A stretch of DNA of 36,757 bases. Source: Methanobacteriota archaeon (GTDB lineage Archaea > Thermoplasmatota > Poseidoniia > Poseidoniales > Poseidoniaceae). The translations under genes and the position numbers were made by a program. Positions 8,179-36,757 of this stretch are shown piece after piece. Position 1 is the first letter of the stretch. Each line of letters opens with the position of its first letter. The notes under the pieces were generated by a model. It made no database searches, was not told the DNA's origin, and saw only the letters and a program-made list of their open reading frames with translations. The stretch lies in NCBI GenBank assembly GCA_018650165.1, contig JABIGM010000001.1, forward strand, positions 1-36,757, read 5' to 3'.

Positions 8179-8205
8179 AATAGCCATCCAAATCCAGTCG
8201 ATTGC

Positions 8206-13243: not shown

Positions 13244-13331
13244 GGAAGTTGGAGGCACTTCAGGTCTAAGACATCATCGCACTAACATTCATCTATCGGG
13301 TCAAGGTGGCCGATGTTATCTGGTGTTTAAT

Positions 13332-14594
13332 ATGGCGAACTGGAGCGCGAAGAATCCATACATGTCTAAGATTACTGAGTGTTATATCCTAAACGGTGAA
13401 GGTTCAAAAAAAGAGACACGGCACATCGTTTTTGATTTGGGAGACTCAGGACTTGATTACAAGGTAGGAGACGCACTTGGCGTATTTGGAGAAAATCCTG
13501 AATCTACCGTTGACCTATTGATTGAAACAGCAGGTTGGGACAAAGACCAACTCGTTACCACTCAAAATGGCAAGAAAAGACTTAGAGATGCTCTAAAGAA
13601 GGATGTCGAAATCCACCGTGTCAATAAAAAGTACGTCAATTCACTTTCACAAAAGATATCCACTGATGGAATGAGAATTACAGTTAAACTCATTGAACGT
13701 TATAGAGAATCAGTTGCTGGTAATGGGTCTGCATGGATGGGTGGAGATACTCCGCTAGAAGCGGAATTGTTACCGTCTATTCCTGGAGACGATCCGACAG
13801 GGAGAGTTGAATCTATTACCGCAGATGGTAAGGCGATGGAAGACTACATCTGGTCTCGCGACTATATCGATGTCTTGAGGGATTTTGATGTAAGTTACAC
13901 GGCAGAAGAATTTATCGAGCTAGCAGATAGGCTCAAGCCTCGCCTGTATTCTATTGCAAGTAGCCACGATGCGCACCCTGGTTTCGTAGAATTGACAGTT
14001 GCAATTGTTCGTTATTCCCACCATGGAAGGGACCGCGGCGGCCTTTGTACTGTGTACATGGCTGATGAAGTCGAAATCAACAAATCTGACGTAGGTGTCT
14101 TCATGTCACCGACAAAATCATTCGTTTTGCCTGCTGATACTTCAACTGACATCATAATGGTCGGTCCAGGTACTGGCATCGCACCTTTCCGTGCTTTCAT
14201 GGAGCAACGTGTGCATGATGGTGGAACTGGTAAGAACTGGTTATTCTTTGGTGACCAATCTGAAAAGACTGAATTCTATTACAAGGATACAATTGAAGAT
14301 TGGATGGATGAAGGAAATCTATACCGATTCACCACTGCTTGGTCACGTGACCAAGAAGAGAAAATTTACGTTCAACACAGGCTAAAAGAGCATGGTGCAG
14401 AAGTGTGGGAATGGTTCGAAAGAGGAGCATACTTCTACATCTGTGGTGACAAGACCTACATGGCAAAAGATGTCCATCGTGCATTGATTGAAATCGCAAT
14501 GGAGCATGGCGGTATGTCACTTGATGATGCAACTTTCTTCATCGAGAAGACAATGATGCGTGAAGAAAAGCGTTACTTGCGTGACGTTTACTGA
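13332..14594 (+). CDS. FAD/NADPH-binding reductase of the CysJ/CPR/FNR family, lacking the flavodoxin domain
   Basis: KETRHIVFDL, YKVGDALGV, LKPRLYSIASS, GLCT, IIMVGPGTGIAPFRAF, WLFFG, KIYVQHR, YICGD, RYLRDVY. Start at ATG 13332; the ORF-track extension to 13077 overlaps the opposite-strand gene. Confidence 0.92.
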   Translation: MANWSAKNPYMSKITECYILNGEGSKKETRHIVFDLGDSGLDYKVGDALGVFGENPESTVDLLIETAGWDKDQLVTTQNGKKRLRDALKKDVEIHRVNKKYVNSLSQKISTDGMRITVKLIERYRESVAGNGSAWMGGDTPLEAELLPSIPGDDPTGRVESITADGKAMEDYIWSRDYIDVLRDFDVSYTAEEFIELADRLKPRLYSIASSHDAHPGFVELTVAIVRYSHHGRDRGGLCTVYMADEVEINKSDVGVFMSPTKSFVLPADTSTDIIMVGPGTGIAPFRAFMEQRVHDGGTGKNWLFFGDQSEKTEFYYKDTIEDWMDEGNLYRFTTAWSRDQEEKIYVQHRLKEHGAEVWEWFERGAYFYICGDKTYMAKDVHRALIEIAMEHGGMSLDDATFFIEKTMMREEKRYLRDVY

Positions 14595-15224: not shown

Positions 15225-16565
15225 ATGGCATTCAAACGCGTCCTAATAGCCAACCGTGGCGAAATCGCATTAAGAATACTCAGAGCACTTCGTGATATGG
15301 GGATTGAAGTAGCAATAATTCATGGCCGTGAAGACCGTTTATCACTTCCAGTACGCATGGCAGATGTTGCTTATCCGATAATGCGTTCAAATCCTTTAGA
15401 TTCATATTTAGATATCGAAGCAGTCATTCAAGCCGCCAAGGAATTGAATTGTGATGCTGTACATCCGGGTTATGGGTTCCTTGCAGAGAATGCACACTTT
15501 GTAAAACGCCTCGAAGAAGAAGGCATTACTTTCATTGGGCCGGCATCACATGTAATCACTTTACTTGGTGACAAAATCGAAGCAAGAGCTGCGATGGAGG
15601 CCGCTGGCCTGCCTACGGCAAAGGGCAGTAGTGAACCAATCTCTACTGTTGCAGTTGCTAGTAAATTAGCCGATGAAATTGGCTATCCTGTCATCATCAA
15701 GGCTGCAGCCGGTGGCGGAGGTATTGGTATGCAAATCGTTCATGTAGAGAATGAATTCGGAAGTGCTCTGAAACTGTGCCAAAGCCGAGCCAAATCAGCA
15801 TTCGGCGATGATCGAGTCTTCGTAGAGAAGTATATCGAAGGAGCCCAGCATGTTGAATTTCAAGTTCTTGGGGATGGGAAAACTGCAATACATTTCGGAG
15901 AACGGTTTTGCTCGATTCAACGTAGGCATCAGAAATTAGTGGAAGAAGGCCCTTGGCTTGATGAAGAAACGCGTGCAAAAATAGGAGCCCTAGTGTGCTC
16001 AGGAGCCGAATCTGTGGGCTACAAAGGCCTTGCAACGTTTGAATTTTTGCGAGATAAGAAAGGAGATTTTTACTTCCTAGAAGTCAATCCGCGTGTCCAA
16101 GTCGAGCACACGGTTACCGAATTGATAACTGGATACAATCTTGTGGAACTTGGAATTAGAGTTGCACAGGGGGAAAGTCTACCTCTTACACAGGAAGATG
16201 TAGTGATTAGAGGGCATGCAATTCAGTGCCGTTTGAATGCAGAGGATACCACGAATTTCATACCATCACCCGGAAGGTTATGGGAATGTCATTTCCCTTC
16301 TGGTTTTGGGATTCGCTGCGATACCCATGCACATCCTGGATACGAGATGCCTGGATGTTTTGATAGCCTATTAGCAAAATTACTGGCTTGGGGCCCAGAC
16401 CGAGAATCAGCAATTCGTCGAATGCGTACTGCACTGGATGAAACAATAATCACCGGAGTCGAGCATCTGATACCCTTACATCGTAGAATTATGGATGAGG
16501 AAGATTTCCTTGCAGGGGATATAACAATCGCTTACATCGAGGAACATGACCATCTCTTGGGATGA
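15225..16565 (+). CDS. accC: Biotin carboxylase subunit (acetyl/propionyl-CoA or pyruvate carboxylase)
   Basis: KRVLIANRGEIALR, HPGYGFLAEN, IKAAAGGGGIGM, CSIQRRHQKL, FLEVNPRVQVEH, DSLLAKL. The partner carboxylase cannot be assigned from this window. Confidence 0.93.
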   Translation: MAFKRVLIANRGEIALRILRALRDMGIEVAIIHGREDRLSLPVRMADVAYPIMRSNPLDSYLDIEAVIQAAKELNCDAVHPGYGFLAENAHFVKRLEEEGITFIGPASHVITLLGDKIEARAAMEAAGLPTAKGSSEPISTVAVASKLADEIGYPVIIKAAAGGGGIGMQIVHVENEFGSALKLCQSRAKSAFGDDRVFVEKYIEGAQHVEFQVLGDGKTAIHFGERFCSIQRRHQKLVEEGPWLDEETRAKIGALVCSGAESVGYKGLATFEFLRDKKGDFYFLEVNPRVQVEHTVTELITGYNLVELGIRVAQGESLPLTQEDVVIRGHAIQCRLNAEDTTNFIPSPGRLWECHFPSGFGIRCDTHAHPGYEMPGCFDSLLAKLLAWGPDRESAIRRMRTALDETIITGVEHLIPLHRRIMDEEDFLAGDITIAYIEEHDHLLG

Positions 16566-20159: not shown

Positions 20160-20624
20160 TTAATCCTTCTTCTTTTGAGAAATCATGTGCTGCTTAATCG
20201 CCTTAGCATCATCCCAATCACTAATTTCTTCTTCAGTAACAGGCGTGAATTGAGGAATTGGAATCGGTCTCATGTTTGAATCGATTGCTACCATGAAGAA
20301 ATAGCCTTCACAGATTTCAGTCTTAGTCCAGTCGGATTTGCTCATGGCCCATGCGGTGACTTTTGAACAAGCAGTACGGTTTGACGTATAGACAATTTTT
20401 GCAGTTACTTCAATTAAATCTCCCTGGCGCGCAGGTGCCTTAAATTCGAGAGTGTCGATAGATATTGTTACAAATTCGCGGTGAGCGAATTTGGCGCAAA
20501 CGATGCCAGCAGCTTTGTCCATTACTGATAATAGTCGGCCGCCAAAAAGGGTATTGTAAGCATTTGTATCCTGGGGAAACACTTCTTCGATGAGTGTAAC
20601 AGGTTCAGTACTGAATGGTTCCAT
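20160..20624 (-). CDS. Acyl-CoA thioesterase (HotDog fold, YciA-like)
   Basis: VFPQDTNAYNTLFGGRLLSVMDKAAG, VTISIDTLEFKAP, FFMVAID. Confidence 0.93.
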   Translation of the reverse strand: MEPFSTEPVTLIEEVFPQDTNAYNTLFGGRLLSVMDKAAGIVCAKFAHREFVTISIDTLEFKAPARQGDLIEVTAKIVYTSNRTACSKVTAWAMSKSDWTKTEICEGYFFMVAIDSNMRPIPIPQFTPVTEEEISDWDDAKAIKQHMISQKKKD

Positions 20625-21383: not shown

Positions 21384-21483
21384 ACTTCTCCGAGTCCCCC
21401 CTTTAGGGGGGAATCCATAGTGTACACTCCCCCGTCGGTCTTTTATGCCCGCCGTGAGTGGAGGAGAGGAGAGGGCGCCACCC

Positions 21484-24400
21484 ATGAATGACAATAATAA
21501 TGCAATCACCGCTTTGGTTTTTACTTGTTTGATGCTAATTTCGCCTTTGGCGGGAGCCGCTTCAGTGACTACTTTCGGCAGTGGTGACTCTGAAATCACA
21601 GTGGAAGTTCGAGATAGCCCTGAATACACCAATAGCGAGGACGGAACCGTTACATTGCCCTCCGGTGCAACAGTAACCGGAGCTTCAGTAAAGATCTCAA
21701 CAGATATGGCGACCCATGAAACATTTACAACTATCAATTCAGAAACTGCTCAGTATGTCTGGGATCCAGTTTACAATAACCAGCAAACAGAATACTCAAC
21801 ACTTAGTGATTTCACATATCATGAAGATACAGTCAAACTAGTCAGTGGTGGGCTCTCTACTGATTTTGAACGTAGTTCTTCTGGTTTCTGGGACCATACA
21901 CAACCGCCAGTTTACGATGGAACTGGATGGCAGCATGGCACTCTAGCAGATTCTACAGTACTCAATGATAATTGTAACACAGGTAATGATTGCTGGGGGA
22001 CAAATTTGTTTGACAACGATAATGATTACACTAATGACGACCAAGGATCTTCGTTTTCTTACAATTTAATTACACCGGAAATGGAAGTAGACCCAAGTTC
22101 CCATATTGCTCGTTTTTCTAGTTGGCATGGCCTTCATTGGTCTCAAACAAACCCAGGTACTAATCCAACCAATACCTATTATGACTGCGCATATGTAATG
22201 GTTAGAAATTCTTCATCACCAAGTTTCCCTCCTCCTGATGTTGGATGGTCACATCTACCATTTGATGCAACAAACTCAACTGGAGTGAATTATGCTAACG
22301 GATTATATCCAATCGGCAGCGGTAATGGGAAAATTCAGAATTGTGATTCTCTAACAGGTACCGACTACGCTCTTGGAGGCGAATCGACTCACCCAACTAG
22401 TAACCCTAATGGCTGGGCTACTCTTGCTCTGAACCTTAACCAACACATTCACAAGTATGTCCAACTTAAGTTCGTAATGAGTTATAATTCAGGTTCTGGA
22501 ACTCCTGAGAATAGTACCATGCCGGGTTGGTTTATCGACGATTTCCGCATAGGCGACCCATTACCACAATCAGGTTCTATGTCTGTCAAAGGATTTACTC
22601 CTAAGCAATCCCCTAGCCCTGGATTTCCAGATGGATACGGAATACTTACTCTAGAGCAGGAAACCACTCCAACCAACTCACTAACAGTAACTATTCTTCG
22701 TGGAGGAACCACAGATATTGCACTAGATAGAGATGGCAATCAGATGACTGGGCTAGAAGGCCCAATTATCGAACTTTGGGGAATTGATGCAGCAGATTAT
22801 CCAGTGATTGATTTGAGATTTGATTTTGATACTGGGCAATACAAACTATCTACGGCTGTTCTTCATGGCTTGAATATTGGTACACGTATTGGTACTGGAT
22901 TAAATGATACAAACGTTGTATTCAATCCAATGATCATGGATGGTGTATGGCAATCTCCGGGAACCAACCAGCCGTTGATGTATGCACCCTCAATTTTAGA
23001 TAATTCATTCAATCCTCCGTTGTACCGTAATAAATTTTCACAACCGATAGTTGGAATTACTCCGCAGATAATTGATGACTGTGTAGAAGAACCGTCAATT
23101 ATGATTAGTCTACGTGATAACTCTATGCACAATAATTTAACGAATGGACAAAAGTGGGTTCCTTCTGAACCTATTTTTGGATTCGCTTCTATGCTATCCT
23201 ATGCCAATCCTTGTGGAATGTCAGAAATGTGGTTTGACTTGGAATTTGGTCATTCAGCTACAGGTGTCTCTTTGGATATTGCAAATGATGGTGACATCGA
23301 ATGGGCAATGAATGAACCAGCATTTGGCGGATTTGGTCGACAAACTACTTTGTGGTCAGGGTACTCAAATGGCATAAACTATGGTGTTGATGAATCCACT
23401 CTGACACTAAACTCCAATGGTGAAGCAACAGGCGGCCGTTTCATGCTACCAATCGGTGCTGATGTGAAAGCCGCAGATGTTATCTTCGCAGATAATACAG
23501 CAAACGATTTCACTCTATCTCTAAGTTCAGATGGACAAGAAGTTGCATTGGGAACTATGCCTAACCAAACAATACTAGCGCACGAAACACTCGAAACAAT
23601 GTTTGATTTCGAGAGTGCACTAATCTCTTTGCTAAACAACCCCTTAGTTAACCCATCTCACACTGATGCTTATGGAAACGATTGGGCAACATTCCAATTC
23701 AATGTCGTAAATAATAACGCTTCAAGTGGTACACAAGTAACGGTCCGTAACCTCGATGTAGTTTATGACTGGGATACAGTTCTAGACGGTTCGATTAATT
23801 TCGATAGAGAATTGAATCAAGGAATTGCATTAGGTACTGGGGCAACCGTCGATGTTCCATTATCCCTCTCTGCAAATAGTGGGGGCGCAGTTAACCTTTC
23901 AGAACTCTCAATTACAACATCCTCAGGTTATGACTCATCTCTAACATTAACTGGAAGTCCAGAAGGCCTGTATCCAAATGGAGACATTATTGAGGCTATT
24001 TCTATCCATAGTGTTGAGCAATCCACAGGAACCTCATTTGCTGAGGCTAGACTTCGCATGGAATCTTCCAGCGGAGTTGTAGAACTATCATTCTCTGAAT
24101 TGACACTATTTACAGAATCATATGACCCTTGGAATCTTATCTCTTTGGAGTCATCATCCTATAATGAAGTTGGAGATGAAATGCATATTACCTGGAGATT
24201 TAGAATAAACACTGCTTGGGAAGATACAGCAGAATTACGATTATATGCAAGTTTGATTGGTGCTGATGGCGTCAACGGACTACCAGGTGCTGTTGTTCTT
24301 GCTCCAGCCAATGGAAATGCAATAGAAAATGATGCAATGATATCAACCTTTGAGTTACAAAATGACGCAGGAGAAGTGCAAAACCTCGCTTCAGCTAGTT

Positions 24401-27300
24401 CTAATCAGAACATCAATCTGATTGGAAGTATTCGCTTAGAGGGTCTAGATGTTTCACCTGACCCTACATCATATAATCTATCTTTACAGCGTTGGGATGT
24501 CCAATCTATCAATGGCACAATTGTTTCTGAATGGGTTGAAGTCACTAATACATCTGGTGTAATTGGTGGCGACTTTGATTGGGCAGTAAATCTTGGATTA
24601 ACTGCTGCGGGACAGGCATCTTACCGATTCATGATCGATGGATATGTAGGTGGAGACACACTTTGTCCAGCAATACCAATTATTGCAGATGCAGACTGTG
24701 CGATTCCATTTAATCTATCAATCGATACTTATTCACCTACTTTAGTGAATATCTCTGTTCTTAAGGCCTCAAATTATGACCCAACTATCTGGTCTAATTG
24801 GAGAGGACTAGTTGATGACACATGGGTTCTTCCAAATGCTCAGCAAAAAGTACGTGTTCTAGCACAAGATATTCCAGCACCTCCTAGTACCCTTGAAATG
24901 TACTACTGGGTTGAATATGACCACGACACTGATTTTGATGGAATCGCAGACCCTGACGAGTACGTGACTCTCACTCTTGTTAGCGATGGTGAAGCGCCTA
25001 CTGCAAACTATACAGGCACCTTTAGCGATGATGCCAACAAAGGACAAGATCCTCCCGGCAAGGTCAGTATTTACATTGAAGGTAATGACTTAGGTGGAAA
25101 TGCAATCGAAGGCGGAGCTTATGGATTTGAAGATGATTTAGTAACCTATGTTTCAATGGATGCTAAGACCCCTAATATCAGGAATTTCTTTATCGAGAAT
25201 TCTGATGGTGAGCGCCTACATAATCCAAACGAGGGTGCACCATTCTACCAAGGACCATGGAACATGAGTATGTATGCTGGAAATGAATATCACCTAATCG
25301 TTGAAGCAACAGATGAGAATGGATGGAGGGATATCAATTACTTCGAAATCGATCTTGGACCTGAAAATATGGTTGTATACTATTCACCTCGCAATGAGAC
25401 TGCATGGGCGGATACAACGGATATCGAAATCGTTACTGCAAGTAATACTAGCGAAGGAGCTCAGGTTTTGCGAATGGATGGAGGTCGACTAATTGACCCA
25501 TTCGAGGATGAATTTTACTTAGACTTGCCAATTCGTATGAATTGGGATATCATCGGAATTGGTTCAACAACCTATGTTCCTCAATTACGAATCAAGGACA
25601 TGGATAGAGACCCTTCACTAATGAGTGAATCTGGCGGTCGTCACAAGCAGCGTTGGGTTTACAGCGATGGAATACAGTTGGATTTCAGAAATGGAATCAG
25701 TCCAACATTTAGCGACCTGTCTTACCCATATTCGCAAGATGTTACCGTGGCATTCGTTTTCCCCGGAGATACTGTTGCAATGGAAGGGCAGTACGCTTAC
25801 TTAGATGGAATTAACAACGGTGTTTATGTTCTACCCGAAGGTGAATTTACGATTGAAGTAACTCGCGTGGAAGCAATGATGGATGGTGGAAAGGGATACC
25901 TCGCCTATCCAGCAGGTGGTGCAGATGGTTCCCGTACCGATGGTCCAACCTTGCACACAATTGATGGTGGAGCATTCAATATCAACATTACAGCTCCTCC
26001 ATTGTCTAATGAATACACATACAATTTCCGTCTAATAAATCTGCCAGTTGGCGCAACAGACACTACAGCATCAATTTGTGATGGAAATAGTGCCTTTGGT
26101 TGTGCTTCATTCAAGATTAAGGTCGATGGTCAACAACCAGAGATTGAGAAGGATTCATGGAGAGCAATATCTGGAATTAACCAAGAAGTACTTGGAAACA
26201 CTATGCCTTCGTCCACTATGCACTGTGTTGATGTCCAAGCAATAGTTGAAGAAAACGCAGCATTACTTGCAGGTGAAGTAGACCTCAAGTGGTCTTTCTA
26301 CTCGGATGCTGATTCAAATCTGACATGGCCAGTATATGGGCAGAAATTTGGTGCTGAACCACAATCTCATTCACTTGGTCTTAAGATACAAGGCGGAGAT
26401 TATCTTGTTAGCGCAGACTGTGTTGATTTGTGGCCAGACCCTCAAGATCCAACCCAGGCTCAAATCACAACTATTGACTTAGTGATGTGGATTGAAGGAA
26501 GAGACTCTGCAGGATGGGCAATTGAAGGTGGAGGGCCAAACAGTGCAGGAGGAATCAGTTCAATTTGGTCTTCTAACCCAGAACACAATTCACAATACAG
26601 GTTAGTTCATGAACAGGCCAAGTTCAGTGTTATCGATGTAAGAATGACACCGAAGAGCCCAGAAGTAGGCGACGTACCAGAACTTGAGATATCTCTGCAG
26701 AACATTGGAACCAAAGATGGAAACATTACTCTAGAAATTCAATCTGTTACAGATGGTGAATTCCCTACAACTGAATTTACATGGACCACTGGAGATATCC
26801 CGCAAGGCGAATTGTCCAATATATTCGTAAAAGATTTGGAAATTTTCGCATCACCTACCAGTGGAATGTACTTCCTCGTAGTAGATGCAGATTCGAATGA
26901 AGTACTGTGGAACGGTTCGCAGAATTCTAAGTCTTTCAACGTTGCAGAAGCGAGTGATGATGAGGGGCTACTATCAGGTTCAGGAATGCTAATCGTTATT
27001 GGACTAGGTGCATTAATTCTGATTCTATTGGTCGCAGTAGTTGTTCTAGTAAAGCGCGATTCTGGCGACCCTTCATACGAGTATGAATACGAGTATGAAG
27101 ATGAAGAGAAAGCCTATGCAGAAATTCCATCTGCAGGAGGAGCCGGTCCTCCACCTTCAGCAGCACCAGCGGCAAATGTTGACCCATTGATGGCAGCAGC
27201 TCTGGCCGAATTCCCACAGTGGGATCAAGAGACGATCCAAGGTTACTTTGACCAAGGATGGGATATCGATACGCTCAGAGACTGGGTAAACAATCAGTGA
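21484..27300 (+). CDS. Giant (about 1940 aa) secreted, C-terminally membrane-anchored surface glycoprotein/adhesin-like protein
   Basis: Signal peptide AITALVFTCLMLISPLAGAA; SD GGAGGAG before ATG 21484; T/S/D/N/G-rich beta content; GWFIDDF-type beta-sandwich module; many N-x-S/T sequons; TM MLIVIGLGALILILLVAVVVLV; cytoplasmic tail. Confidence 0.9.
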   Translation: MNDNNNAITALVFTCLMLISPLAGAASVTTFGSGDSEITVEVRDSPEYTNSEDGTVTLPSGATVTGASVKISTDMATHETFTTINSETAQYVWDPVYNNQQTEYSTLSDFTYHEDTVKLVSGGLSTDFERSSSGFWDHTQPPVYDGTGWQHGTLADSTVLNDNCNTGNDCWGTNLFDNDNDYTNDDQGSSFSYNLITPEMEVDPSSHIARFSSWHGLHWSQTNPGTNPTNTYYDCAYVMVRNSSSPSFPPPDVGWSHLPFDATNSTGVNYANGLYPIGSGNGKIQNCDSLTGTDYALGGESTHPTSNPNGWATLALNLNQHIHKYVQLKFVMSYNSGSGTPENSTMPGWFIDDFRIGDPLPQSGSMSVKGFTPKQSPSPGFPDGYGILTLEQETTPTNSLTVTILRGGTTDIALDRDGNQMTGLEGPIIELWGIDAADYPVIDLRFDFDTGQYKLSTAVLHGLNIGTRIGTGLNDTNVVFNPMIMDGVWQSPGTNQPLMYAPSILDNSFNPPLYRNKFSQPIVGITPQIIDDCVEEPSIMISLRDNSMHNNLTNGQKWVPSEPIFGFASMLSYANPCGMSEMWFDLEFGHSATGVSLDIANDGDIEWAMNEPAFGGFGRQTTLWSGYSNGINYGVDESTLTLNSNGEATGGRFMLPIGADVKAADVIFADNTANDFTLSLSSDGQEVALGTMPNQTILAHETLETMFDFESALISLLNNPLVNPSHTDAYGNDWATFQFNVVNNNASSGTQVTVRNLDVVYDWDTVLDGSINFDRELNQGIALGTGATVDVPLSLSANSGGAVNLSELSITTSSGYDSSLTLTGSPEGLYPNGDIIEAISIHSVEQSTGTSFAEARLRMESSSGVVELSFSELTLFTESYDPWNLISLESSSYNEVGDEMHITWRFRINTAWEDTAELRLYASLIGADGVNGLPGAVVLAPANGNAIENDAMISTFELQNDAGEVQNLASASSNQNINLIGSIRLEGLDVSPDPTSYNLSLQRWDVQSINGTIVSEWVEVTNTSGVIGGDFDWAVNLGLTAAGQASYRFMIDGYVGGDTLCPAIPIIADADCAIPFNLSIDTYSPTLVNISVLKASNYDPTIWSNWRGLVDDTWVLPNAQQKVRVLAQDIPAPPSTLEMYYWVEYDHDTDFDGIADPDEYVTLTLVSDGEAPTANYTGTFSDDANKGQDPPGKVSIYIEGNDLGGNAIEGGAYGFEDDLVTYVSMDAKTPNIRNFFIENSDGERLHNPNEGAPFYQGPWNMSMYAGNEYHLIVEATDENGWRDINYFEIDLGPENMVVYYSPRNETAWADTTDIEIVTASNTSEGAQVLRMDGGRLIDPFEDEFYLDLPIRMNWDIIGIGSTTYVPQLRIKDMDRDPSLMSESGGRHKQRWVYSDGIQLDFRNGISPTFSDLSYPYSQDVTVAFVFPGDTVAMEGQYAYLDGINNGVYVLPEGEFTIEVTRVEAMMDGGKGYLAYPAGGADGSRTDGPTLHTIDGGAFNINITAPPLSNEYTYNFRLINLPVGATDTTASICDGNSAFGCASFKIKVDGQQPEIEKDSWRAISGINQEVLGNTMPSSTMHCVDVQAIVEENAALLAGEVDLKWSFYSDADSNLTWPVYGQKFGAEPQSHSLGLKIQGGDYLVSADCVDLWPDPQDPTQAQITTIDLVMWIEGRDSAGWAIEGGGPNSAGGISSIWSSNPEHNSQYRLVHEQAKFSVIDVRMTPKSPEVGDVPELEISLQNIGTKDGNITLEIQSVTDGEFPTTEFTWTTGDIPQGELSNIFVKDLEIFASPTSGMYFLVVDADSNEVLWNGSQNSKSFNVAEASDDEGLLSGSGMLIVIGLGALILILLVAVVVLVKRDSGDPSYEYEYEYEDEEKAYAEIPSAGGAGPPPSAAPAANVDPLMAAALAEFPQWDQETIQGYFDQGWDIDTLRDWVNNQ
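27076..27099 (+). repeat. Exact 12-bp tandem duplication (TACGAGTATGAA x2) encoding YEYEYEYE
   Basis: Seen directly in the sequence. Confidence 0.85.
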
Positions 27301-27306: not shown

Positions 27307-28104
27307 ATGAACCTTGACTGGGATGATATCCATTGGGAAGACCCCGATGGAGGTACAATTGTACTACACGGTATATTGCCAACGGTGGTTTTGCCAAATA
27401 AAATGCGACCGCGATTCCAGTGGCATGGATTAGGTATCATGGGCACCAGCGAGGAAGAAGAAGTCTGGGTCGAAGAAGAGAAATCTGAAATTAAAGACGC
27501 TGGAATCAATCTTGATAGTGCGATTCTAAATGGCGGCCTTGACGGACTTTATCTTGAAATGTTGAGATGGATTGATGGATTACAAGTCGGTAGATTTCCC
27601 GATCCGGAGCCACGCAGATTACATAAAACCGCATTGAAGCACAGCCGTCCAATATTTTTCGCAGAACCCGATATGGATGATGATGACTGGGCTGATTTTT
27701 TAGAGAGGGAAGCGAAAGAAATGACTCGCCCTCTCAAGTTATTGAAAATTGTCTTTACATCTCGCCGTTGGCGAAAGAGCATCAAAAAGATGCGTAAGAA
27801 AGTAGTGCCGCAGCCCCCTCGGGAGCCTGATGACCTCCAAGCAGCTAGCGCTTTAGCCGCTGTATGGTGGTCATTAAATCGCGAAAATTCTGATAAGAAA
27901 CTAAACGTAGAGAAAGATGAACGCTTTGCAGCACGACTTAGAGGAGGCTTGGCGCAATTGCGAATCGAGCATGGAGCCGAAGCGGTGCTTCTAGTACCAA
28001 TCCAGCAGGCGTGGAGGGAATCAATGCTCAGCTCGTTAGAAAAGTTACCTAATCCAGAGGAGAGTTCATCACTCTCAAGCACTTCGGATGGAGAGGAGGA
28101 GTGA
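27307..28104 (+). CDS. Conserved hypothetical protein (possibly degenerate TraB/PrgY-like fold)
   Basis: Intact 265-aa ORF tightly coupled to both neighbours. Fold suggestion is weak. Confidence 0.75.
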   Translation: MNLDWDDIHWEDPDGGTIVLHGILPTVVLPNKMRPRFQWHGLGIMGTSEEEEVWVEEEKSEIKDAGINLDSAILNGGLDGLYLEMLRWIDGLQVGRFPDPEPRRLHKTALKHSRPIFFAEPDMDDDDWADFLEREAKEMTRPLKLLKIVFTSRRWRKSIKKMRKKVVPQPPREPDDLQAASALAAVWWSLNRENSDKKLNVEKDERFAARLRGGLAQLRIEHGAEAVLLVPIQQAWRESMLSSLEKLPNPEESSSLSSTSDGEEE

Positions 28105-28646
28105 CAATGAGTGGAACAAATAGCATCGAAGTTCGTGTTGAAAATCTGCTAGTACGATTCACTCCAACACCTTCTGTAGACCTTGAAGAAGCGATTGAAC
28201 GCCTCGGCGGAGTAAGAAATGGTGATGTCATAATCAAGATGTTAGATGCGCCACGTGCAACTCTCATAATTGATGAAAAGGGTCGAATAATTGTCCATGG
28301 TACTCATCGAATAGAAGCGGCGAGGGCTGCAGCAAAGGAAATGTTACTTCGTATGGGGAGAAATGATTCTGGATTAATTGCTGAACTAGGGCCAATTGTG
28401 GCTTCCTTTGATTTTGGCGAGGAAGTTCCAATTCACAACATTCGTTCTAATCTTGGTAGTGGTACAACATCAATTGACGAAAGACTGGGTTGTTTACGCC
28501 TTAATGATACTAGGCATGATTTGGAATTATTAATTTGGCCGACCGGGAAATGTGTTGCTTTAGAAGCGCGCCATCCAAATATGGTTGCCATGGCCGCAGT
28601 TCATTGGAAAGGAAAATTTGCTGATAAAAAATCGCTTAAGGCGTGA
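28101..28646 (+). CDS. Highly divergent TATA-binding-protein (TBP)-fold protein
   Basis: Two ~85-aa repeats resembling TBP: VRVENLLVRF..VDLEE...LDAPRATLIIDEKGRIIVHG and GPIVASFDFGEEV...LELLIWPTGKCV. GTG overlaps the upstream stop; ATG 28107 is an alternative start. Confidence 0.7.
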   Translation: MTMSGTNSIEVRVENLLVRFTPTPSVDLEEAIERLGGVRNGDVIIKMLDAPRATLIIDEKGRIIVHGTHRIEAARAAAKEMLLRMGRNDSGLIAELGPIVASFDFGEEVPIHNIRSNLGSGTTSIDERLGCLRLNDTRHDLELLIWPTGKCVALEARHPNMVAMAAVHWKGKFADKKSLKA

Positions 28647-29532: not shown

Positions 29533-30621
29533 ATGGAATCTTTGAAGAGGGTCATTTTAATCTCGCTCCTCACCATTTGCTTGTTTGCACCGATGAGTTC
29601 ACAGGCGCAGGCAACTCTGATTGGCGTTGAACTAGATTGCGACCAATCAACCATCAATATCAATGTCCACCCTGAACAAAACGAACCGGTTATTGTCTCA
29701 TGTACAGTAACTAATACCGGCTCATTCAAAGAGAATATTGACTTGGATAGTGAAGTAGATGGTAATGAGTTCAGTTTATCATTTTCAGAATCATCGTTTG
29801 AATTGGATGCGGGAGATGATGCTAATTTTATTGCAACCTTTTCTGCATCACCGCGAATAGAAGTCACAACCGAAGATTACAATATATCTGCAACTGTTAT
29901 CAGTTTCGGAGTGGAGCCGATTTTTGTTCCGTTAGGCCAACTGGGTTCTACTGCAGAGATAAATGGTGAAGTAAATTCATTGGCATATTCGAGAGTTGAT
30001 CTGGAAGTCTCAAATCCGGCTACTCGAAACATCGAAGTCGGTGAAGAAGCAACAATCCAATTTACAATGTTCAACGATGGAAACAGAGTTGATAACTTAG
30101 AAGTAATTGTCGTCAACATTGATGAAATAGAGGATGCAGGATTCGAATTCGCAACAGATCCATTTGTCCGAGCAACAGTGAATCCCGGTGCGTCTTCAAA
30201 TCAAGGGGCAATCATCTTGATTGCACCAGATAGCGCATCTGATGAAATAACCATTCAAGTTCAACTAAGGGCCGTATCAACTCTTGACACTAGTGCAACT
30301 CCAAGTGAAGCCTCAATAAGAATAGTAGTGGCATCTTCTGGAAGTGATAGTGCAATCGATTTTAACTCGATGGATTCCGATAGTTATGCCATGATAGGCA
30401 TGGTGGCAGGTGGTGTAATTGGAGTAATTCTCTTACTTGTAGTAATCTCACGACTCACCAAGAAAGCAGGAAAGCAGAAGACGGCAGTCAAGCAAGCACA
30501 TAAGGCAAAGAAGGCTAATAAAAAGTCCAATGATGAACCTATTATCGAAGAAGAGGACGACTTAGATTTCGACGATGATTTCGGAGACCTTGATGACGAC
30601 TTCGATTTTGACGACTTATGA
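29533..30621 (+). CDS. Secreted membrane-anchored protein with two Ig-like/CARDB-like domains and a basic-then-acidic tail
   Basis: Signal peptide, CTVTNTG and FTMFNDGN beta-strand motifs, TM MIGMVAGGVIGVILLLVVI, tail KKAGKQK...DDDLDFDDDFGDLDDDFDFDDL. Confidence 0.85.
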   Translation: MESLKRVILISLLTICLFAPMSSQAQATLIGVELDCDQSTININVHPEQNEPVIVSCTVTNTGSFKENIDLDSEVDGNEFSLSFSESSFELDAGDDANFIATFSASPRIEVTTEDYNISATVISFGVEPIFVPLGQLGSTAEINGEVNSLAYSRVDLEVSNPATRNIEVGEEATIQFTMFNDGNRVDNLEVIVVNIDEIEDAGFEFATDPFVRATVNPGASSNQGAIILIAPDSASDEITIQVQLRAVSTLDTSATPSEASIRIVVASSGSDSAIDFNSMDSDSYAMIGMVAGGVIGVILLLVVISRLTKKAGKQKTAVKQAHKAKKANKKSNDEPIIEEEDDLDFDDDFGDLDDDFDFDDL

Positions 30622-30722
30622 GCCTCTAAAATCTCGCCTCCGGCTATTTTTTTACACTAGTCTAAAGCGTCTCACAGCCTATTTTGGCATGGCAACAGTC
30701 ATAGGCGTGGTGGCAAGGGAAA

Positions 30723-30743
30723 CACCTACCCTAAGGGTAGGTG
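30723..30743 (+). promoter_or_regulatory. Perfect 9-bp hairpin covering the SD of fabI
   Basis: CACCTACCC-TAA-GGGTAGGTG. The AGGTG SD-like element is in the 3' arm, 6 nt before ATG 30750. Confidence 0.6.
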
Positions 30744-30749
30744 CTAATC

Positions 30750-31544
30750 ATGCTTAGATTACAAGGTAAAGTTGCATTTGTTTTTGGAGTTGCCAGCGAG
30801 GACTCAATCGCTTGGGCAATTTGCAAAAGTTTAGCCGAAGCCGGGGTGACATTATATCTCGGATATCAGAAAAGATTCATGTCTCGAGTTTTCCAATTAA
30901 AAGACAAATTGCCAGCGATTGCGGGGTTCTATCCTCTTGATGTAGCGACCGATGCCGATACAAAAGAATTCTTTGACAAATTCAGTGAAGAAAACCCCGG
31001 GCTAAAAGCGGATATTTTGATTCATGCAATCGGTTTCGCACCACGTGAGTGTTTCGATAGGCCGATTCTATTCGTCGATGATGATAAAATTAACACTGCA
31101 TTTACAATCTCTGCTAACTCTCTACAACGCTGTTTGAAGTTTGCAATACCATATCTCAATCCAGGCTCATCTACGATTACTCTAACTTACGCTGCATCTA
31201 CACGCCATGTGCCCTCCTATGGAATAATGAGTATGGCAAAAGCAGCACTTGAATGCTGGACTCGAGAACTCGCCTGTCACCTTGGACCAGAAGGTCACAG
31301 AGTCAATGCAATTTCAAGTGGACCAATTCGAACGATTGCAGCAAGTGGCATTCCGGGGTTTGATAATATCCTAGATCATGTGGCTGCCAATTCACCTCTT
31401 AGAAGAAATGTGAATCAATCGGATGTCGCAGGGTGTACTACCTGGCTTGCAAGCCCATTAGCATCGGGGGTTACTGGTCAGTGCATCCATGTTGATGCCG
31501 GTTATTCCATCACAATGGTGCCTTCGAGCATAATGGGTGAGTGA
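30750..31544 (+). CDS. fabI: Enoyl-[acyl-carrier-protein] reductase (FabI-type SDR)
   Basis: FGVASEDSIAWAI, LIHAIGFAP, YGIMSMAKAALE (Y-x2-M-x3-K), RVNAISSGPIRTIAASGI, GVTGQCIHVDAG. Confidence 0.93.
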   Translation: MLRLQGKVAFVFGVASEDSIAWAICKSLAEAGVTLYLGYQKRFMSRVFQLKDKLPAIAGFYPLDVATDADTKEFFDKFSEENPGLKADILIHAIGFAPRECFDRPILFVDDDKINTAFTISANSLQRCLKFAIPYLNPGSSTITLTYAASTRHVPSYGIMSMAKAALECWTRELACHLGPEGHRVNAISSGPIRTIAASGIPGFDNILDHVAANSPLRRNVNQSDVAGCTTWLASPLASGVTGQCIHVDAGYSITMVPSSIMGE

Positions 31545-31549
31545 ACCAA

Positions 31550-34500
31550 ATGACAATCACTACAGCAGACGGTAAAGCCTGTGATGGCCTTGAGCAAGCT
31601 CCTTTTGAGCCGATTGCAGTAATTGGTATGGCGGCACTGATGCCTGATGCTGCAAGCACCGAGCAATTCTGGCAGAATATTATCGATGCTCACGTTTCTA
31701 TCAAAGAGGTCCCGGTAAACCGCTGGGACCCTGAGATCTATTGGGAGGATGGCTCACCTGGGAATGTTAGCGAAGGCAAAACCTACTCTAAAATCGGTGG
31801 CTTCATCGAAAATTATGAATTCGATTGGCGCCGTTGGAGGCAACCCCCGGGCACACTTCCTCAAATCGACCCATGTCAATTGTGGGCTGTAACCGTCTCG
31901 GCGGATGCGATTACCAATGCAGGTTATGGCGATGATGGAAAAATTCTAGATCGCTCCCGAACAGGCGTGATTTTTGCTAATGCACTGGGTGGAGAAAATC
32001 GTTCTGAATCCAATATCCGAATCTACAGTGCCGAAATGAGAAAAATCGCACTGGATAATGGTGCAACTATTGAGCAAGCCGATGCGATGGTTGCAAAAAT
32101 GTGCGAAGGGAAGCCACGTATCGATGAAGATACTATGCCTGGTGAACTTGCAAATGTTGTAAGTGGAAGAGTGGCCAATCTACTAGACCTCCAAGGTCCA
32201 AATTATTCTACAGATGCAGCATGTGCTTCATCGATGGCAGCATTACTGGATGCCTGCCGTCTACTTCAAACCAGACAAGTCGACACAATGCTTGCTGGTG
32301 CAACCGACCGATGCATGGAGGCTCCGACTTATGCAAAGTTTAGCGCCATTGGTGCACTTTCTCCATCACATTCCACTCCATTCGATGCGAGAGCAAATGG
32401 GTTCGTCATGGGTGAAGGCGCCGGTGTTCTTCTTCTGAAGAGATTATCAGATGCAATTCGAGACGGAGATGATGTCAAGGCGGTTGTTCGTGGCGTAGGT
32501 GGTTCTTCAGATGGGCGAGGTAAAGGCATCACTGCTCCAAGCCAACGTGGGCAAGTCCAAGCTGTTAGTCGCGCATATTCACAGGCAGGGTATTCGCCAT
32601 CATCGGTTGAATTAGTCGAAGCACATGGGACCTCTACCAAAGTTGGAGATGCTACTGAATTATCGACGCTATCTTTACTGTGGACTGGATTAGATGGAGG
32701 CGATCATATTGCAGTCGGTTCGGTGAAGAGCCAAATTGGGCATTTGAAAGCAGCAGCAGGAATTGCTGGAATCATGAAAGCATGCAATGCCGTATATCAC
32801 AGAACAATTCCGCCAAGTGCTGGTTTTGAGACTCCTAATCCAACTGTAGAATGGAATCAAATTCCGTTCTTCGTACCGACTGAGGCGCGCGATTGGCCTG
32901 AACCAGAAACAAACCCACGCCGAGCCGGAGTCTCAGCATTTGGTTTCGGCGGCACCAATTTCCACGTAGCAATCGAAGGCTTCGACCCTCAGTACCATGC
33001 AAAACTCGTGTCACACTGGGATGGAAGATGGGAAGCATATGCCGGAATCGAATCAAGTTCTAGCGCTGAGGCATCACTCACTCATGAGGAATTGAAAGAT
33101 GTAGAAGGTGGATTATTACTTTTATCTGGGGATACGATTGAATCTGTAAAATCGAAATTAAGTACAATCTCATTTAGCAGCACAACATTTGATGAAGACC
33201 CAAATGGCATTCGTCTTTCCTTTACTTTGTCAGAAAATTGGTCATTTGAGACAAGCGATTCCGTAAGAATGGCAATTTCGGCAACAAGTTGGGCTGAATT
33301 CAACAAGCGCAAAGAACTTGCAACTAATTCAATAGAAGACAAAGCCAAGTGGGGATTCTTGGCGAGTCAGGGAATTCAGATTAGTGATGAGCCAGCATTA
33401 CCTTCCAATGCTAAAGTAGCACACATGTATCCCGGACAAGGCAGCCAATATGTTGGTATGACTATGGATTTGCACAGGAGATATTCCGGTGTAGTTGATG
33501 TCTGGAACAAAGCCGATGTCACAATGGTCGATGTTCTTGATGGAGAATCCCTCTCATCGTTCGTATTACGTTCCAATCTTACCAAAGAAGAAAGTGTCGA
33601 AGCAGAACACAAACTGAAACAGACTGAATATACGCAACCTGCTATGCTAACCGCCGATCTTGCAATCGAAGCAGCATTCAATGCGCATGGGCACAAACCT
33701 GACATGGTTGCTGGGCACAGTTTGGGCGAATATGCTGCACTAATGAGCGCTGGAATCCTCAATATGGACGGTGCACTTCGTGCAGCAGCAGCCCGCGGAA
33801 CTGAAATGGGTAGTGTTCAAATTGACGATAAGGGCCTGATGGCAAGCGTGACTGCTCCTTACGAGCATATTGCGCAAATTCTTGAAGAAATCGACGGGTA
33901 TGTCATTGCTGCAAACAAGAACTCCCCTCGGATGACTGTAATTGCAGGAGAAACCGGACCCGTCAAAGCAGCGATGTCCCGTTTTGAAACCGAAGGATTC
34001 CAATGTGTGGCATTGGCAACAAGTCATGCATTCCATTCTAGAATCGTTGCTCCAGCAAACGTGCCATTACGTAAATTCCTCGAAAGTTTGGAAATCGGAT
34101 GGCCAAAAATCCCCCTAACTAGCAACGTTGATGGAGGATGGTATCCAATGGATGACGGCAGTGATTCGAAAGTTGCAATTCTTTCAAAACTCGCCCCTCA
34201 GATGGCATCCAGCGTCGAATGGACTACTCAAATCAATACAATGTATGATGCAGGCGCAAGAATGTTCGTTGAAGTTGGACCGAAACGGGCACTGACTGTA
34301 TTCGCTTCACAAATTCTCGAAGGTAGGCCTGCACTCCCAGTTATGTCAAATCACCCAAAAGCGGGCGGAATTGCAACGTTCCTTTCTGCTTTAGGAACCA
34401 TGGCACTTGCAGGGAGAGTCCCGCAATGGCCGGACCGAAATAGCCCACGCCTAACAGATGCATTCCGCGCAGGGCCAATTGAATCACGAGATAGAATTTC

Positions 34501-36757
34501 ACAACCAGCAACTTCTCTCAAGGAACGAAGTCGCCCTCTGCCATCTAAAGGCGGGGTAGCAGTTACGACTACAATTGTTCAATCTACAGAAACCTATGTG
34601 GACCCCGATTTGGCAAAGAAAAATTTGGTTGGAGATTTGATTTCAGCACAGACCGGATATCCTTCGAAATTTTGCCAAGGGAATGTGGATATGCGCGCAG
34701 TATTGGGTATGAGCGATGCTCAAATCCAAACGGTGATTTCATCTGTTCATACCCGATGTAGTACAGACCCTGAGTGGGACATTACCATTGCAAAAACTCC
34801 TGGTGACATCACTAGATGGATTACGGATGCTTTGATACAAGAGAGTCGTACACAGATAACAACGCAAGATAATCGTGGTGAAGACCCATTTGTGATAACT
34901 GGAATTTCCCTTGGCCTACCCGGCGGCGAAAGAGTCTTTGATACGGGTAATTTTGAGAAGTTAGTTCGAGGAGAAACCTGTATCAGCGAAGTTACTGATG
35001 ACTACAAACAACGTTTGCTTGACAAAAATATTGTTCGTCTAATCAAAGGCCGTGACGGCAGTGTTGGAATGGAATCTGCAAAAGAATTCGGAGATATTCC
35101 CCAACTTGCCGGAATAAAAGGTGCGTTTGATCCAACTGATGAATTTGGAATTGATGCTAAGATTGCTGCCGCTTGGGACATAAGTACACAACTTGCTTGT
35201 GCAGCGGGGCTAATCGCTCTGAAAGATGCAGGAATTCCATTGATGCCAGTTGAACAAGTTGGTAAGGGCGGATTACGTCTAATTCGCTCTTGGCAAATGC
35301 CATCGAGTTACCGAGATAGGACTGGAATTGTATTCGCATCTTGTTTCGCAGGCCATCAAATGGCTGCAAAGCATGCTAAGGTCGATGGTGATGACGGTGA
35401 GGGACGATTTGATCGTCGCTATCTATTCCAAATATTGAACATGGGCCATTCACAATTCGCTCAACATGTTGGTATCCGTGGCCCCAACACTACAATCAAT
35501 CTAGCATGCGCTTCAGCTACTGCTGCATTTGGCGTAGCGGAAGATTGGCTTGCAACCGATAGATGTGACCGCGTGGTAATAATTTCTGCAGATGATGTAA
35601 CTGGAGACGATTTATGGGAATGGATTGGCTCTGGTTTTGCTGCAAGCGGTGCAGCAGCAACCAACAATGTAATCGAAGAAACCGCATTACCATTCGACCG
35701 TAGAAGAAATGGTTTGATTTTAGGAATGGGCGCAGCCGCATTCGTTATTGAAAAGAAATCACAATCCGATGCGAGAGGAGTCCAGCCTATTGCAGAATTA
35801 CTTGGGACAAAGGTTGCAAACTCTGCATTCCATGGAACGCGTCTAGATGTTGAGCATGTAGCCACAACCGTCAATCAATTCATCGAAGAGATGGAAGTTA
35901 AGTGGAATCTTGACCGCCATGTAATGGCGCCAGACACCGTGTTTTTCTCTCATGAAACATTTACTCCTGCACGAGGAGGCTCCGCTCAAGCCGAGGTCAA
36001 AGCTCTTCGAGATACCTTCGGCCAAAGTACAGATTCCATTGTAATTGCAAATACCAAAGGTTTCACTGGACATCCAATGGGAGTAGGTATCGAAGATGCA
36101 TCTATGTTCTATGGGTTAATGACGGGACGGATTCCACCAATTGCGAACCACAAAGAGGTTGACCCTGAACTTGGTAATCTAAATTTATCAAAGGGTCAAG
36201 CATATCCTAATTTAAGGTACGGAATGCGATTTGCTGCCGGATTTGGTAGCCAAATCGGACTATCGCTTGTACGTAAATGTGATTACTCCGGTGACAGAAT
36301 TGACAAACAAAAATTACTAACTTGGAATCAGTCCTTAGCAGGAACGTCAAATCTAGAGTTACGTGTTTTACAAAACAAGTTGGTCGCATATGTTGACGGA
36401 GAAAATAATCTTCACGGAGGCATCCAAGGTGAAGAATACGCCAATGCTTCCGAGTATTCTGCAGTACCAGCCCCAATTGTTGTTGAAACGAAACCTGAAC
36501 CAACGCCAGTTCCTAAAATAGTTACAGCACCTATCGAAGTTCCAACACCACAACCGGTTGCAACACCTGTTGCTGTTACAGTTACAGCAGATAGTAGTGA
36601 TGTCAAGCCTAAGTTGATCGGCGTTGTAGTCAAACATACAGGCTATCCTGAAGATTTCATTGAGATGGACCAAGACCTAGAAGGTGAACTGGGAATTGAT
36701 ACAGTAAAACAAGCCGAAATTATGGGAGATGTAAGAGAGATTTTCTCTTTACCAGTC
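31550..36757 (+). CDS. Type I iterative PKS/FAS (Pfa-like) megasynthase, 3' end outside window: KS-AT-ACP-like-KS-linker-ACP...
   Basis: Manual translation, frame checked at intervals; at least 1736 codons, absent from the ORF track because no stop lies in the window. KS1: EPIAVIG, DAACASS (Cys 32222), EAHGTST (His 32624), KSQIGHL (His 32741). AT: YPGQGSQ, GHSLGE (Ser 33719), HAFHS. KS2: NLACAS (Cys 35507), SHETF (His 35951), TKGFTGHP (His 36071). ACP: TGYP...DLEGELGIDTVKQAEI. Alternative GTG start at 31541. Confidence 0.93.
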   Translation, partial: MTITTADGKACDGLEQAPFEPIAVIGMAALMPDAASTEQFWQNIIDAHVSIKEVPVNRWDPEIYWEDGSPGNVSEGKTYSKIGGFIENYEFDWRRWRQPPGTLPQIDPCQLWAVTVSADAITNAGYGDDGKILDRSRTGVIFANALGGENRSESNIRIYSAEMRKIALDNGATIEQADAMVAKMCEGKPRIDEDTMPGELANVVSGRVANLLDLQGPNYSTDAACASSMAALLDACRLLQTRQVDTMLAGATDRCMEAPTYAKFSAIGALSPSHSTPFDARANGFVMGEGAGVLLLKRLSDAIRDGDDVKAVVRGVGGSSDGRGKGITAPSQRGQVQAVSRAYSQAGYSPSSVELVEAHGTSTKVGDATELSTLSLLWTGLDGGDHIAVGSVKSQIGHLKAAAGIAGIMKACNAVYHRTIPPSAGFETPNPTVEWNQIPFFVPTEARDWPEPETNPRRAGVSAFGFGGTNFHVAIEGFDPQYHAKLVSHWDGRWEAYAGIESSSSAEASLTHEELKDVEGGLLLLSGDTIESVKSKLSTISFSSTTFDEDPNGIRLSFTLSENWSFETSDSVRMAISATSWAEFNKRKELATNSIEDKAKWGFLASQGIQISDEPALPSNAKVAHMYPGQGSQYVGMTMDLHRRYSGVVDVWNKADVTMVDVLDGESLSSFVLRSNLTKEESVEAEHKLKQTEYTQPAMLTADLAIEAAFNAHGHKPDMVAGHSLGEYAALMSAGILNMDGALRAAAARGTEMGSVQIDDKGLMASVTAPYEHIAQILEEIDGYVIAANKNSPRMTVIAGETGPVKAAMSRFETEGFQCVALATSHAFHSRIVAPANVPLRKFLESLEIGWPKIPLTSNVDGGWYPMDDGSDSKVAILSKLAPQMASSVEWTTQINTMYDAGARMFVEVGPKRALTVFASQILEGRPALPVMSNHPKAGGIATFLSALGTMALAGRVPQWPDRNSPRLTDAFRAGPIESRDRISQPATSLKERSRPLPSKGGVAVTTTIVQSTETYVDPDLAKKNLVGDLISAQTGYPSKFCQGNVDMRAVLGMSDAQIQTVISSVHTRCSTDPEWDITIAKTPGDITRWITDALIQESRTQITTQDNRGEDPFVITGISLGLPGGERVFDTGNFEKLVRGETCISEVTDDYKQRLLDKNIVRLIKGRDGSVGMESAKEFGDIPQLAGIKGAFDPTDEFGIDAKIAAAWDISTQLACAAGLIALKDAGIPLMPVEQVGKGGLRLIRSWQMPSSYRDRTGIVFASCFAGHQMAAKHAKVDGDDGEGRFDRRYLFQILNMGHSQFAQHVGIRGPNTTINLACASATAAFGVAEDWLATDRCDRVVIISADDVTGDDLWEWIGSGFAASGAAATNNVIEETALPFDRRRNGLILGMGAAAFVIEKKSQSDARGVQPIAELLGTKVANSAFHGTRLDVEHVATTVNQFIEEMEVKWNLDRHVMAPDTVFFSHETFTPARGGSAQAEVKALRDTFGQSTDSIVIANTKGFTGHPMGVGIEDASMFYGLMTGRIPPIANHKEVDPELGNLNLSKGQAYPNLRYGMRFAAGFGSQIGLSLVRKCDYSGDRIDKQKLLTWNQSLAGTSNLELRVLQNKLVAYVDGENNLHGGIQGEEYANASEYSAVPAPIVVETKPEPTPVPKIVTAPIEVPTPQPVATPVAVTVTADSSDVKPKLIGVVVKHTGYPEDFIEMDQDLEGELGIDTVKQAEIMGDVREIFSLPV

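Follow-up and report, generated by a model that had tools for sequence, protein, structure and literature searches.

A fabI–megasynthase–phosphopantetheinyl transferase operon of marine Poseidoniales, a probable source of an accessory reduced acyl chain

To our knowledge, archaea are held to lack acyl carrier protein (ACP) and ACP-dependent fatty acid synthesis. Two co-directional genes in the final 6 kb of a contig from a Marine Group II archaeon (MGII; Poseidoniales), fabI followed by a type I megasynthase gene, raise the question of what such enzymes make in an archaeal cell. The window analysed here is this entire contig (C27; JABIGM010000001.1, 36,757 nucleotides). It belongs to a metagenome-assembled genome (MAG) of 1.75 Mb, which comprises 66 contigs and is 80% complete. 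We conclude that the two genes probably form a chromosomal, vertically inherited operon together with a third gene for an Sfp-type phosphopantetheinyl transferase (PPTase), and that the megasynthase is an iterative, PfaA-like enzyme of the Type R kind, which would make an accessory reduced acyl chain. Table 1 gives an overview of the features within the window.

An earlier reading of this DNA, made from the sequence alone, had described a bacterial-type FabI followed 5 nt later by a megasynthase with intact ketosynthase (KS) and malonyl-type acyltransferase (AT) active sites. Open reading frames, Pfam matches and motifs agree with this description. The fabI stop codon ends at position 31544 and the next ATG lies at 31550, which results in the 5-nt spacer, while use of the alternative GTG at 31541 would make both genes overlap. 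FabI is a short-chain dehydrogenase/reductase (SDR) of 264–267 amino acids with a match to Pfam adh_short_C2 (PF13561, 226 bits) and the catalytic motif Tyr160-x6-Lys167. All of its 60 best PDB matches are enoyl-ACP reductases, headed by FabI of T. thermophilus (1ulu; E 3e-55, full-length alignment). Since the protein scores below every NCBIfam FabI equivalog cut-off (best NF005615, 213 vs. 391 bits), it is placed in a divergent FabI-like clade. The SDR fold, the Tyr-x6-Lys motif and the full-length alignment to solved FabI enzymes are shared with FabI of bacterial type II fatty acid synthase (FAS). Unlike the latter, archaeal fabI lies in one operon with a type I synthase.

For the megasynthase, the sequence-only reading had listed KS and AT correctly but missed a second active KS, a degenerate carrier-like domain (psiACP) and a Thr acceptor in the carrier domains. 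The first KS (KS1) reaches Pfam scores of 238 and 128 bits. The second (KS2) carries the full triad Cys1323-His1471-His1511, and an alignment of 19 diverse family members shows no variation at these three positions. A Pro/Ala-rich linker connects KS2 to the first carrier domain, in which the window ends. As had been supposed, the remainder of the gene lies outside the window: contig C52 of the same MAG shares an exact overlap of 68 nt (window 36690–36757 = C52 4070–4137), and its minus strand extends the synthase frame by 942 codons, comprising the end of the carrier, a ketoreductase (KR; YAAAN) and a dehydratase of the polyketide synthase (PKS) type (DH; HxxxGxxxxP). The assembly broke within the tandem carrier repeats, which is also where many related MAGs are interrupted. 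Only 4 nt after the synthase stop codon C52 carries the gene for an Sfp-type PPTase of 229 amino acids (L018:615-1304, minus strand), which matches PF01648 with 36.4 bits (cut-off 25) and weakly shows the N-terminal 4PPT_N/AASDHPPT_N lobes. Of the downstream parts that had been anticipated, further ACPs, KR, DH and PPTase exist, but no acyltransferase is linked to the operon. Intact orthologues comprise 2,700–2,925 amino acids in the order KS1-AT-psiACP-KS2-ACPn-KR-DH, with two to four, mostly three, carriers. They contain no internal stops. The best NCBIfam match of the synthase is PfaA (TIGR02813), with 609.6 bits for the window fragment and 928.4 bits for an intact orthologue. As the latter value is below the cut-off of 1010.1 bits, membership of the PfaA family was rejected.

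Of 24 genomes of the same genus, 23 have an intact synthase orthologue, and such orthologues also occur in other families of the order. The nearest homologues of FabI and the synthase in public records come from Candidatus Poseidoniales, Poseidoniaceae, Thalassarchaeaceae and Marine Group II. Identities within the genus amount to 87–96% for FabI, 76–85% for the synthase and 58–83% for the PPTase. The gene order TBP-TatD-(x)-fabI-synthase-PPTase recurs in more than 40 independently assembled archaeal MAGs from different studies. Preceded by the 265-aa gene, it is found in the same genus and on a 3.0-Mb contig of a relative which is only about 55% identical in KS2. Other contigs with the cassette measure 0.5 and 1.5 Mb; one further homologue sits on a 2.0-Mb contig. 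In a tree of KS2 sequences the Poseidoniia copies all fall into one clade (SH-aLRT 100). Contig C27 itself carries the archaeal markers Cdc6/Orc1 (10823–12115), TBP (28101–28646) and a DUF359 dephospho-CoA kinase fusion, and the TBP gene is located 2 kb upstream of the cassette. These observations bear on the suspicion that bacterial DNA was joined to the contig at about 30.7 kb by contamination or chimeric assembly. The suspicion draws on the nature of a MAG contig, on the mostly bacterial gene family and on a mildly higher GC content at 31–33 kb (0.47–0.49 vs. about 0.44), which we judge unremarkable overall. Nevertheless, at the level of comparative data the recurrence of the cassette order in independent MAGs, partly on Mb-sized contigs, reduces the probability of chimerism to a negligible level, and the proximity of TBP and the single Poseidoniia clade point in the same direction. 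The earlier view of a genuine archaeal operon is thereby upheld.

The distribution within MGII, which had been named as a check, is uneven. Genus by genus fabI and the synthase gene co-occur, both being present in 7 of the 11 genera sampled. In the other four (g5, g7, g8 and g10) the cassette was not found in eight genomes of 91–97% completeness, one of which is a single contig. PF01553 acyltransferases and the 4HBT thioesterase are retained in the cassette-lacking genera, as is the 4HBT-265aa-TBP-TatD block. One non-bearing genome with this block, in which other genes follow TatD, is a single contig. At two loci of synthase-lacking Poseidoniales (L116, G039:C1:532500-552499; L117 of G037) the genes for the 4HBT thioesterase, the 265-aa protein, TBP and TatD are followed by unrelated genes. 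Presence and absence of the cassette thus concern one conserved chromosomal site after TBP-TatD. Bearers and non-bearers share the block upstream of this site, but the downstream flanks differ between lineages and define no exact boundaries of an insertion or deletion. Gain and loss of the cassette are formally indistinguishable; the pattern fits a cassette that was inherited vertically for a long time, kept by purifying selection and lost from lineages with small genomes.

Beyond the order, a profile-free exhaustive search with KS2 yielded 541 cluster representatives (E < 1e-30), most of which comprise 2,500–4,000 amino acids with KS2 similarly placed. Named bacterial relatives are about 50% identical and belong to Acidobacteriota (Bryobacteraceae, Sulfotelmatobacter), Acidimicrobiia, Myxococcota, Calditrichaeota and Gemmatimonadales. 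In the KS2 tree, the backbone of which is weak, the archaeal clade stands amid proteins of the same layout from Myxococcota, Acidobacteriota and Acidimicrobiia. Two megasynthases (P0131 and P0156), assigned to Heimdallarchaeota (Asgard) by their NCBI records, belong to the same two-KS family with about 46–47% identity in KS2. One has a Thr-type and the other a Ser-type carrier set, and both branch outside the Poseidoniia clade. PUFA-like KS domains in Heimdallarchaeota were also listed in a survey of biosynthetic gene clusters (BGC) (PMC7472256). A claim of independent acquisition by Heimdallarchaeota and Poseidoniia was dropped: a single common archaeal clade was not rejected in the AU test (p 0.70), and constraining the tree to such a clade even gave a slightly better result than the quick unconstrained search.

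The position of fabI gives a hint at its role. In all 44 archaeal loci with upstream DNA, which stem from many independent studies and do not include Heimdallarchaeota gene neighbourhoods, fabI lies directly 5′ of the synthase gene. This linkage sets the archaeal copies apart from the bacterial loci of the family, as a FabI homologue was found within 10 kb of the synthase gene in none of 32 bacterial loci. All PP-binding matches in 41 Poseidoniales genomes fall inside the synthase gene, and no stand-alone ACP was detected. In the same genomes the FabA/FabZ family (PF07977) gave no match at the cut-off; other type II FAS genes were not searched. Because neither a stand-alone ACP nor FabZ was found in these genomes, the synthase-bound enoyl-ACP would be the only possible substrate of FabI, and the enzyme could not belong to a dissociated FAS. 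We propose that FabI is the trans-acting enoyl reductase (ER) of the megasynthase. The sequence-only reading had already placed FabI in the role that PfaD plays in polyunsaturated fatty acid (PUFA) synthases. In line with this, the stand-alone fabI gene is adjacent to the synthase gene, and the NMO-type PfaD family (PF03060) had no match over the cut-off in this genome (80% complete).

The carrier domain in the window departs from the canonical Ser acceptor of PF00550. In its motif GIDTVKQAEI, Thr1721 aligns with the phosphopantetheine-bearing Ser of solved ACPs. An AlphaFold2 (AF2) model of an orthologous carrier domain (pLDDT 90.8) places the Thr as first residue of helix II. The modelled fold resembles many ACPs (Foldseek TM 0.7–0.9), and PF00550 scores 76 bits in the orthologue. 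Thr is present in 351 of 351 carrier motifs from 121 close homologues. The 150 best family representatives include 103 with Thr alone and 5 with Ser alone. Thr is encoded by all four ACN codons, which argues that selection maintains the residue, and the Ser forms use TCA or TCG, one step off. In some Poseidoniales (G030, G033, UBA596 and UBA182) every repeat carries Ser. Mapped onto the KS2 tree, the acceptor residue switches two or more times within Poseidoniia and six or more times in the whole tree, always in all repeats of a protein. The PPTase gene is kept downstream of Ser-type and Thr-type synthases alike. The idea of separate PPTases for the two carrier types was rejected, since Ser-type loci also have an Sfp-type PPTase and the divergence of the PPTases follows overall divergence. 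According to the simplest reading of these sequences, Ser and Thr would be interchangeable acceptors for the cognate PPTase in this synthase family.

One might object that the carriers are dead, that Thr cannot accept the cofactor and that the operon is a relic or has a function other than carrying acyl chains. Thr-linked phosphopantetheine is not known to occur in nature. ACP of E. coli with the exchange S36T is not phosphopantetheinylated (PMC3340395). Nevertheless, the invariance of Thr in close homologues, its predominance among the best family representatives, the codon variety, the repeated swaps with Ser in all repeats at once, the retained PPTase gene and the intact frames of about 2,900 codons in dozens of MAGs make dead carriers very unlikely.

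The degenerate psiACP domain differs from these carriers. BLAST and alignment show its homology to the true ACP domains of family members, and its AF2 model shows a four-helix carrier with a core pLDDT of about 90 and helix II starting from Asp1059. Among the top structural matches listed, almost every one is an ACP (TM 0.70–0.77 by target, E about 1e-2). Its acceptor position is Asp in this protein and not conserved among homologues (D/E/N/P/A), with Ser-Asp where true carriers have Asp-Thr or Asp-Ser. Most probably, psiACP is a relic with a structural or docking role.

The layout of the synthase is not new. Type R secondary-lipid synthases were described as a single pfaA homologue with the order KS-MAT-‘CLF’-ACP(3–6)-KR and a downstream PPTase, with clusters in Acidobacteria, Elusimicrobia and Chloroflexi (Koribacter, Solibacter, Elusimicrobium, Roseiflexus), an unknown product and a ‘secondary’ role alongside type II FAS (Shulse & Allen 2011, PLoS One 6:e20146, PMC3098273). 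Compared with this published description, the archaeal synthase has the same layout of KS, AT, second KS, ACPs and KR, and the PPTase gene directly 3′ of the synthase gene, which is kept in relatives. Bacterial relatives identified by KS2 also have this layout, with mostly Thr-type carrier motifs. The archaeal system deviates from Type R by its host and by the lack of a stand-alone ACP or FabZ. A C-terminal PKS-type DH and a degenerate carrier domain, which are not part of the 2011 description, are present. Likewise unlike the description, the ‘CLF’ keeps the Cys-His-His triad, and it does so in bacteria too. The label therefore appears ill-suited to the entire family, and the triad does not seem to be a peculiarity of the archaeal copy.

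PfaA and the pfaABCDE PUFA synthases share the order KS-AT, tandem ACPs, KR and DH with the archaeal protein, as well as an Sfp-type PPTase (PfaE) and a trans-acting enoyl reductase. Unlike PfaA, the archaeal synthase holds the extra KS within the same protein, and PfaB and PfaC are missing. The reductase is an SDR-type FabI and not an NMO-type PfaD. PUFA synthase carriers have Ser at the acceptor position, in contrast to the GIDTVKQAEI motif described above. There is no obvious route to cis double bonds, because a FabA-type dehydratase/isomerase was not found in the 41 genomes. The Pfa-like logic of a secondary-lipid synthase, as suggested from the sequence alone, thus holds with respect to the Type R layout and the best NCBIfam match.

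From the domains we infer the activities, the loading of Thr, a division of labour between KS1 and KS2, the product and its destination as follows. The PPTase would transfer phosphopantetheine from CoA onto the tandem carriers, in this protein onto Thr, and the AT would load malonyl units from malonyl-CoA. KS1 and KS2, both predicted to be active, would elongate the chain and probably share the work by chain length. The KR would then reduce and the DH dehydrate the intermediate, and FabI, as a separate protein, would reduce the enoyl-ACP in trans. With these steps, each round would amount to a complete cycle of the fatty acid type, leading to a long, largely saturated acyl chain. As a thioesterase domain was not found in the synthase, the chain would probably be passed to an acceptor or be released by a separate enzyme. 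We infer that in bacteria the ER is borrowed from the type II FAS of the cell, and that the archaeal cassette had to bring one along. A cassette that supplies its own ER suggests that the Type R product needs enoyl reduction and is a reduced chain of the fatty acid type.

The PF01553 acyltransferases and the nearby 4HBT thioesterase (20160–20624) were rejected as a co-varying acceptor or release enzyme, since both occur in 11 of 11 genera. Their presence in all genera, with or without the synthase, argues that the synthase is not the general acyl source of the order. A stand-alone AccC-type biotin carboxylase is encoded at 15225–16565 (plus strand), with an overlap of 4 nt with a PfkB-family kinase gene, and three carboxyltransferase genes are found elsewhere in the genome (C16, C26 and C5). 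A supply of malonyl-CoA for the synthase by these proteins is possible. At 8176–9195 (plus strand) a cytidylyltransferase-like (PPAT-type) domain is fused to DUF359 (archaeal dephospho-CoA kinase). Such a fusion would combine the final two steps in the synthesis of CoA, the donor of the carrier cofactor.

Several points weigh against our interpretation, in addition to the E. coli S36T result. The synthase gene of this MAG is split over two contigs within its ACP repeats. With a genome that is 80% complete, absences in this MAG are weak evidence. No gene for a release enzyme or an acceptor is linked to the operon, and the genes 3′ of the PPTase in an orthologous locus include no lipid-related families. 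Furthermore, FabI might be active in some rounds only, which would lead to a partly unsaturated or hydroxylated chain.

Two other products come into consideration. The operon could be a primary FAS that feeds PlsC-type acyltransferases for glycerol-3-phosphate (G3P)-based ester lipids, i.e. the ‘mixed membrane’ of MGII. The genome encodes a GpsA-like G3P dehydrogenase, two PF01553 acyltransferases and GGGPS, and an Fe-ADH_2 type glycerol-1-phosphate (G1P) dehydrogenase (G1PDH) had no match in this genome. This agrees with Rinke et al. (2019, PMC6461757), who found no G1PDH in 270 MAGs and proposed mixed membranes, so that a role in such membranes can be envisaged. The synthase is also the sole ACP system in the genomes searched, and the operon encodes a complete reducing cycle. 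However, the eight high-quality genomes from the four cassette-lacking genera have the same acyltransferases, no acyltransferase is linked to the operon, and the bacterial relatives are ‘secondary’ enzymes which coexist with type II FAS (PMC3098273). In addition, MGII genomes encode fatty acid degradation, and MGII could use external fatty acids (PMC6461757). We regard a primary FAS as unlikely. The broader proposal that MGII build their own fatty-acyl chains on Thr-phosphopantetheine carriers, a linkage undescribed for any carrier protein, and incorporate them into G3P-based membrane lipids is doubtful.

Alternatively, the operon may make no membrane fatty acid but a specialised polyketide that is partly reduced, or some unusual long-chain compound (for example hydroxylated, olefinic or very long), with FabI acting in some rounds only. 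BGC tools class such clusters as T1PKS/hglE-KS. Two active KS domains and a degenerate carrier are superfluous for a plain FAS, a thioesterase domain is lacking, the Type R relatives offer no known product for comparison (PMC3098273), and a patchy distribution is typical of accessory metabolism. Against such a product stands the single iterative module with KR, DH and a dedicated ER, with no tailoring genes nearby. The tight and universal linkage of archaeal fabI, for which no other substrate is apparent, indicates that enoyl reduction is central to the product. A polyketide or an unusual long-chain compound consequently appears improbable and takes the third rank, behind the primary membrane FAS. 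In first place we rank the accessory reduced acyl chain. The absence of the cassette from several genera makes an accessory (‘secondary’) lipid the most likely product, and not a bulk membrane lipid.

Table 1. Coordinates and characteristics of the operon features located in the window.
Feature	Position	Strand	Characteristics
TATA-like A/T-rich element TATTTTTTTA	30645..30654	+	within the 119-nt spacer 5′ of fabI; read from sequence
fabI, FabI-type enoyl-ACP reductase	30741..31544	+	start GTG 30741 or ATG 30750
megasynthase gene, first 1,739 codons	31541..36757	+	start GTG 31541 or ATG 31550; open to the last base of the window
KS1, PfaA-type ketosynthase	31607..32986	+	PF00109, PF02801, PF16197; Cys228, His362, His401
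malonyl-type AT	33425..34312	+	PF00698 119 bits; FabD TIGR00128 191 bits; GHSLG Ser727, HAFH 829-832
psiACP, degenerate carrier-like domain	34604..34831	+	residues ~1022-1097; between AT and KS2
KS2, divergent FabF-like ketosynthase	34883..36265	+	PF00109 59 bits; FabF alignments in PDB and NCBIfam
first tandem carrier (ACP), N-terminal part	36602..36757	+	Thr1721 = ACA, 36701-36703

Upstream of the operon, the element TATTTTTTTA is a possible archaeal promoter of fabI. A gene for a protein of the ‘choice-of-anchor T’ family (29533–30621, plus strand; NCBIfam 92 bits, cut-off 70) lies between TatD and fabI. It is a within-genus insertion and absent from the TatD-fabI position in the distant relative L109. 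Further upstream, a predicted surface protein of 1,951 amino acids (21445–27300, plus strand) combines a hydrophobic N-terminal segment with a membrane anchor at the C-terminus and an acidic tail (YEYEYEYEDEE). Distant relatives (L019, L109) likewise encode a large protein 5′ of TBP-TatD. The gene at 13077–14594 (plus strand) encodes a protein of 505 amino acids with FAD_binding_1 and NAD_binding_1 domains, corresponding to the reductase half of a diflavin reductase, which is unusual for an archaeon. A flavodoxin domain was not detected in this protein.

The sequence-only reading had overstated the novelty of the system. The domain order had been recorded as Type R as early as 2011 (PMC3098273), public MAGs carry annotations of the genes, and BGC surveys list such clusters, one of them as T1PKS/hglE-KS clusters in Poseidoniaceae (paper since retracted). 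In the open literature we found no functional study, and none that discusses the MGII operon, the obligatory fabI or the Thr carriers.

MGII are abundant and uncultured, and their lipids are disputed, as they have no G1P dehydrogenase, yet a bacterial-type G3P dehydrogenase and PlsC-like acyltransferases. With three genes in a compact and self-sufficient cassette, the question of fatty chains in MGII turns into a cloning experiment. The archaeal copies are also informative for the bacterial Type R family, itself uncharacterised, since the obligatory fabI suggests that its product needs enoyl reduction. The occurrence of Thr at the acceptor site throughout the family and its exchange with Ser predict a PPTase-carrier chemistry which has not yet been described. 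If fatty acids made on Thr carriers did enter G3P-based lipids, this would mean an ACP-dependent archaeal FAS and would provide an enzymatic basis for ‘mixed’ membranes across the lipid divide.

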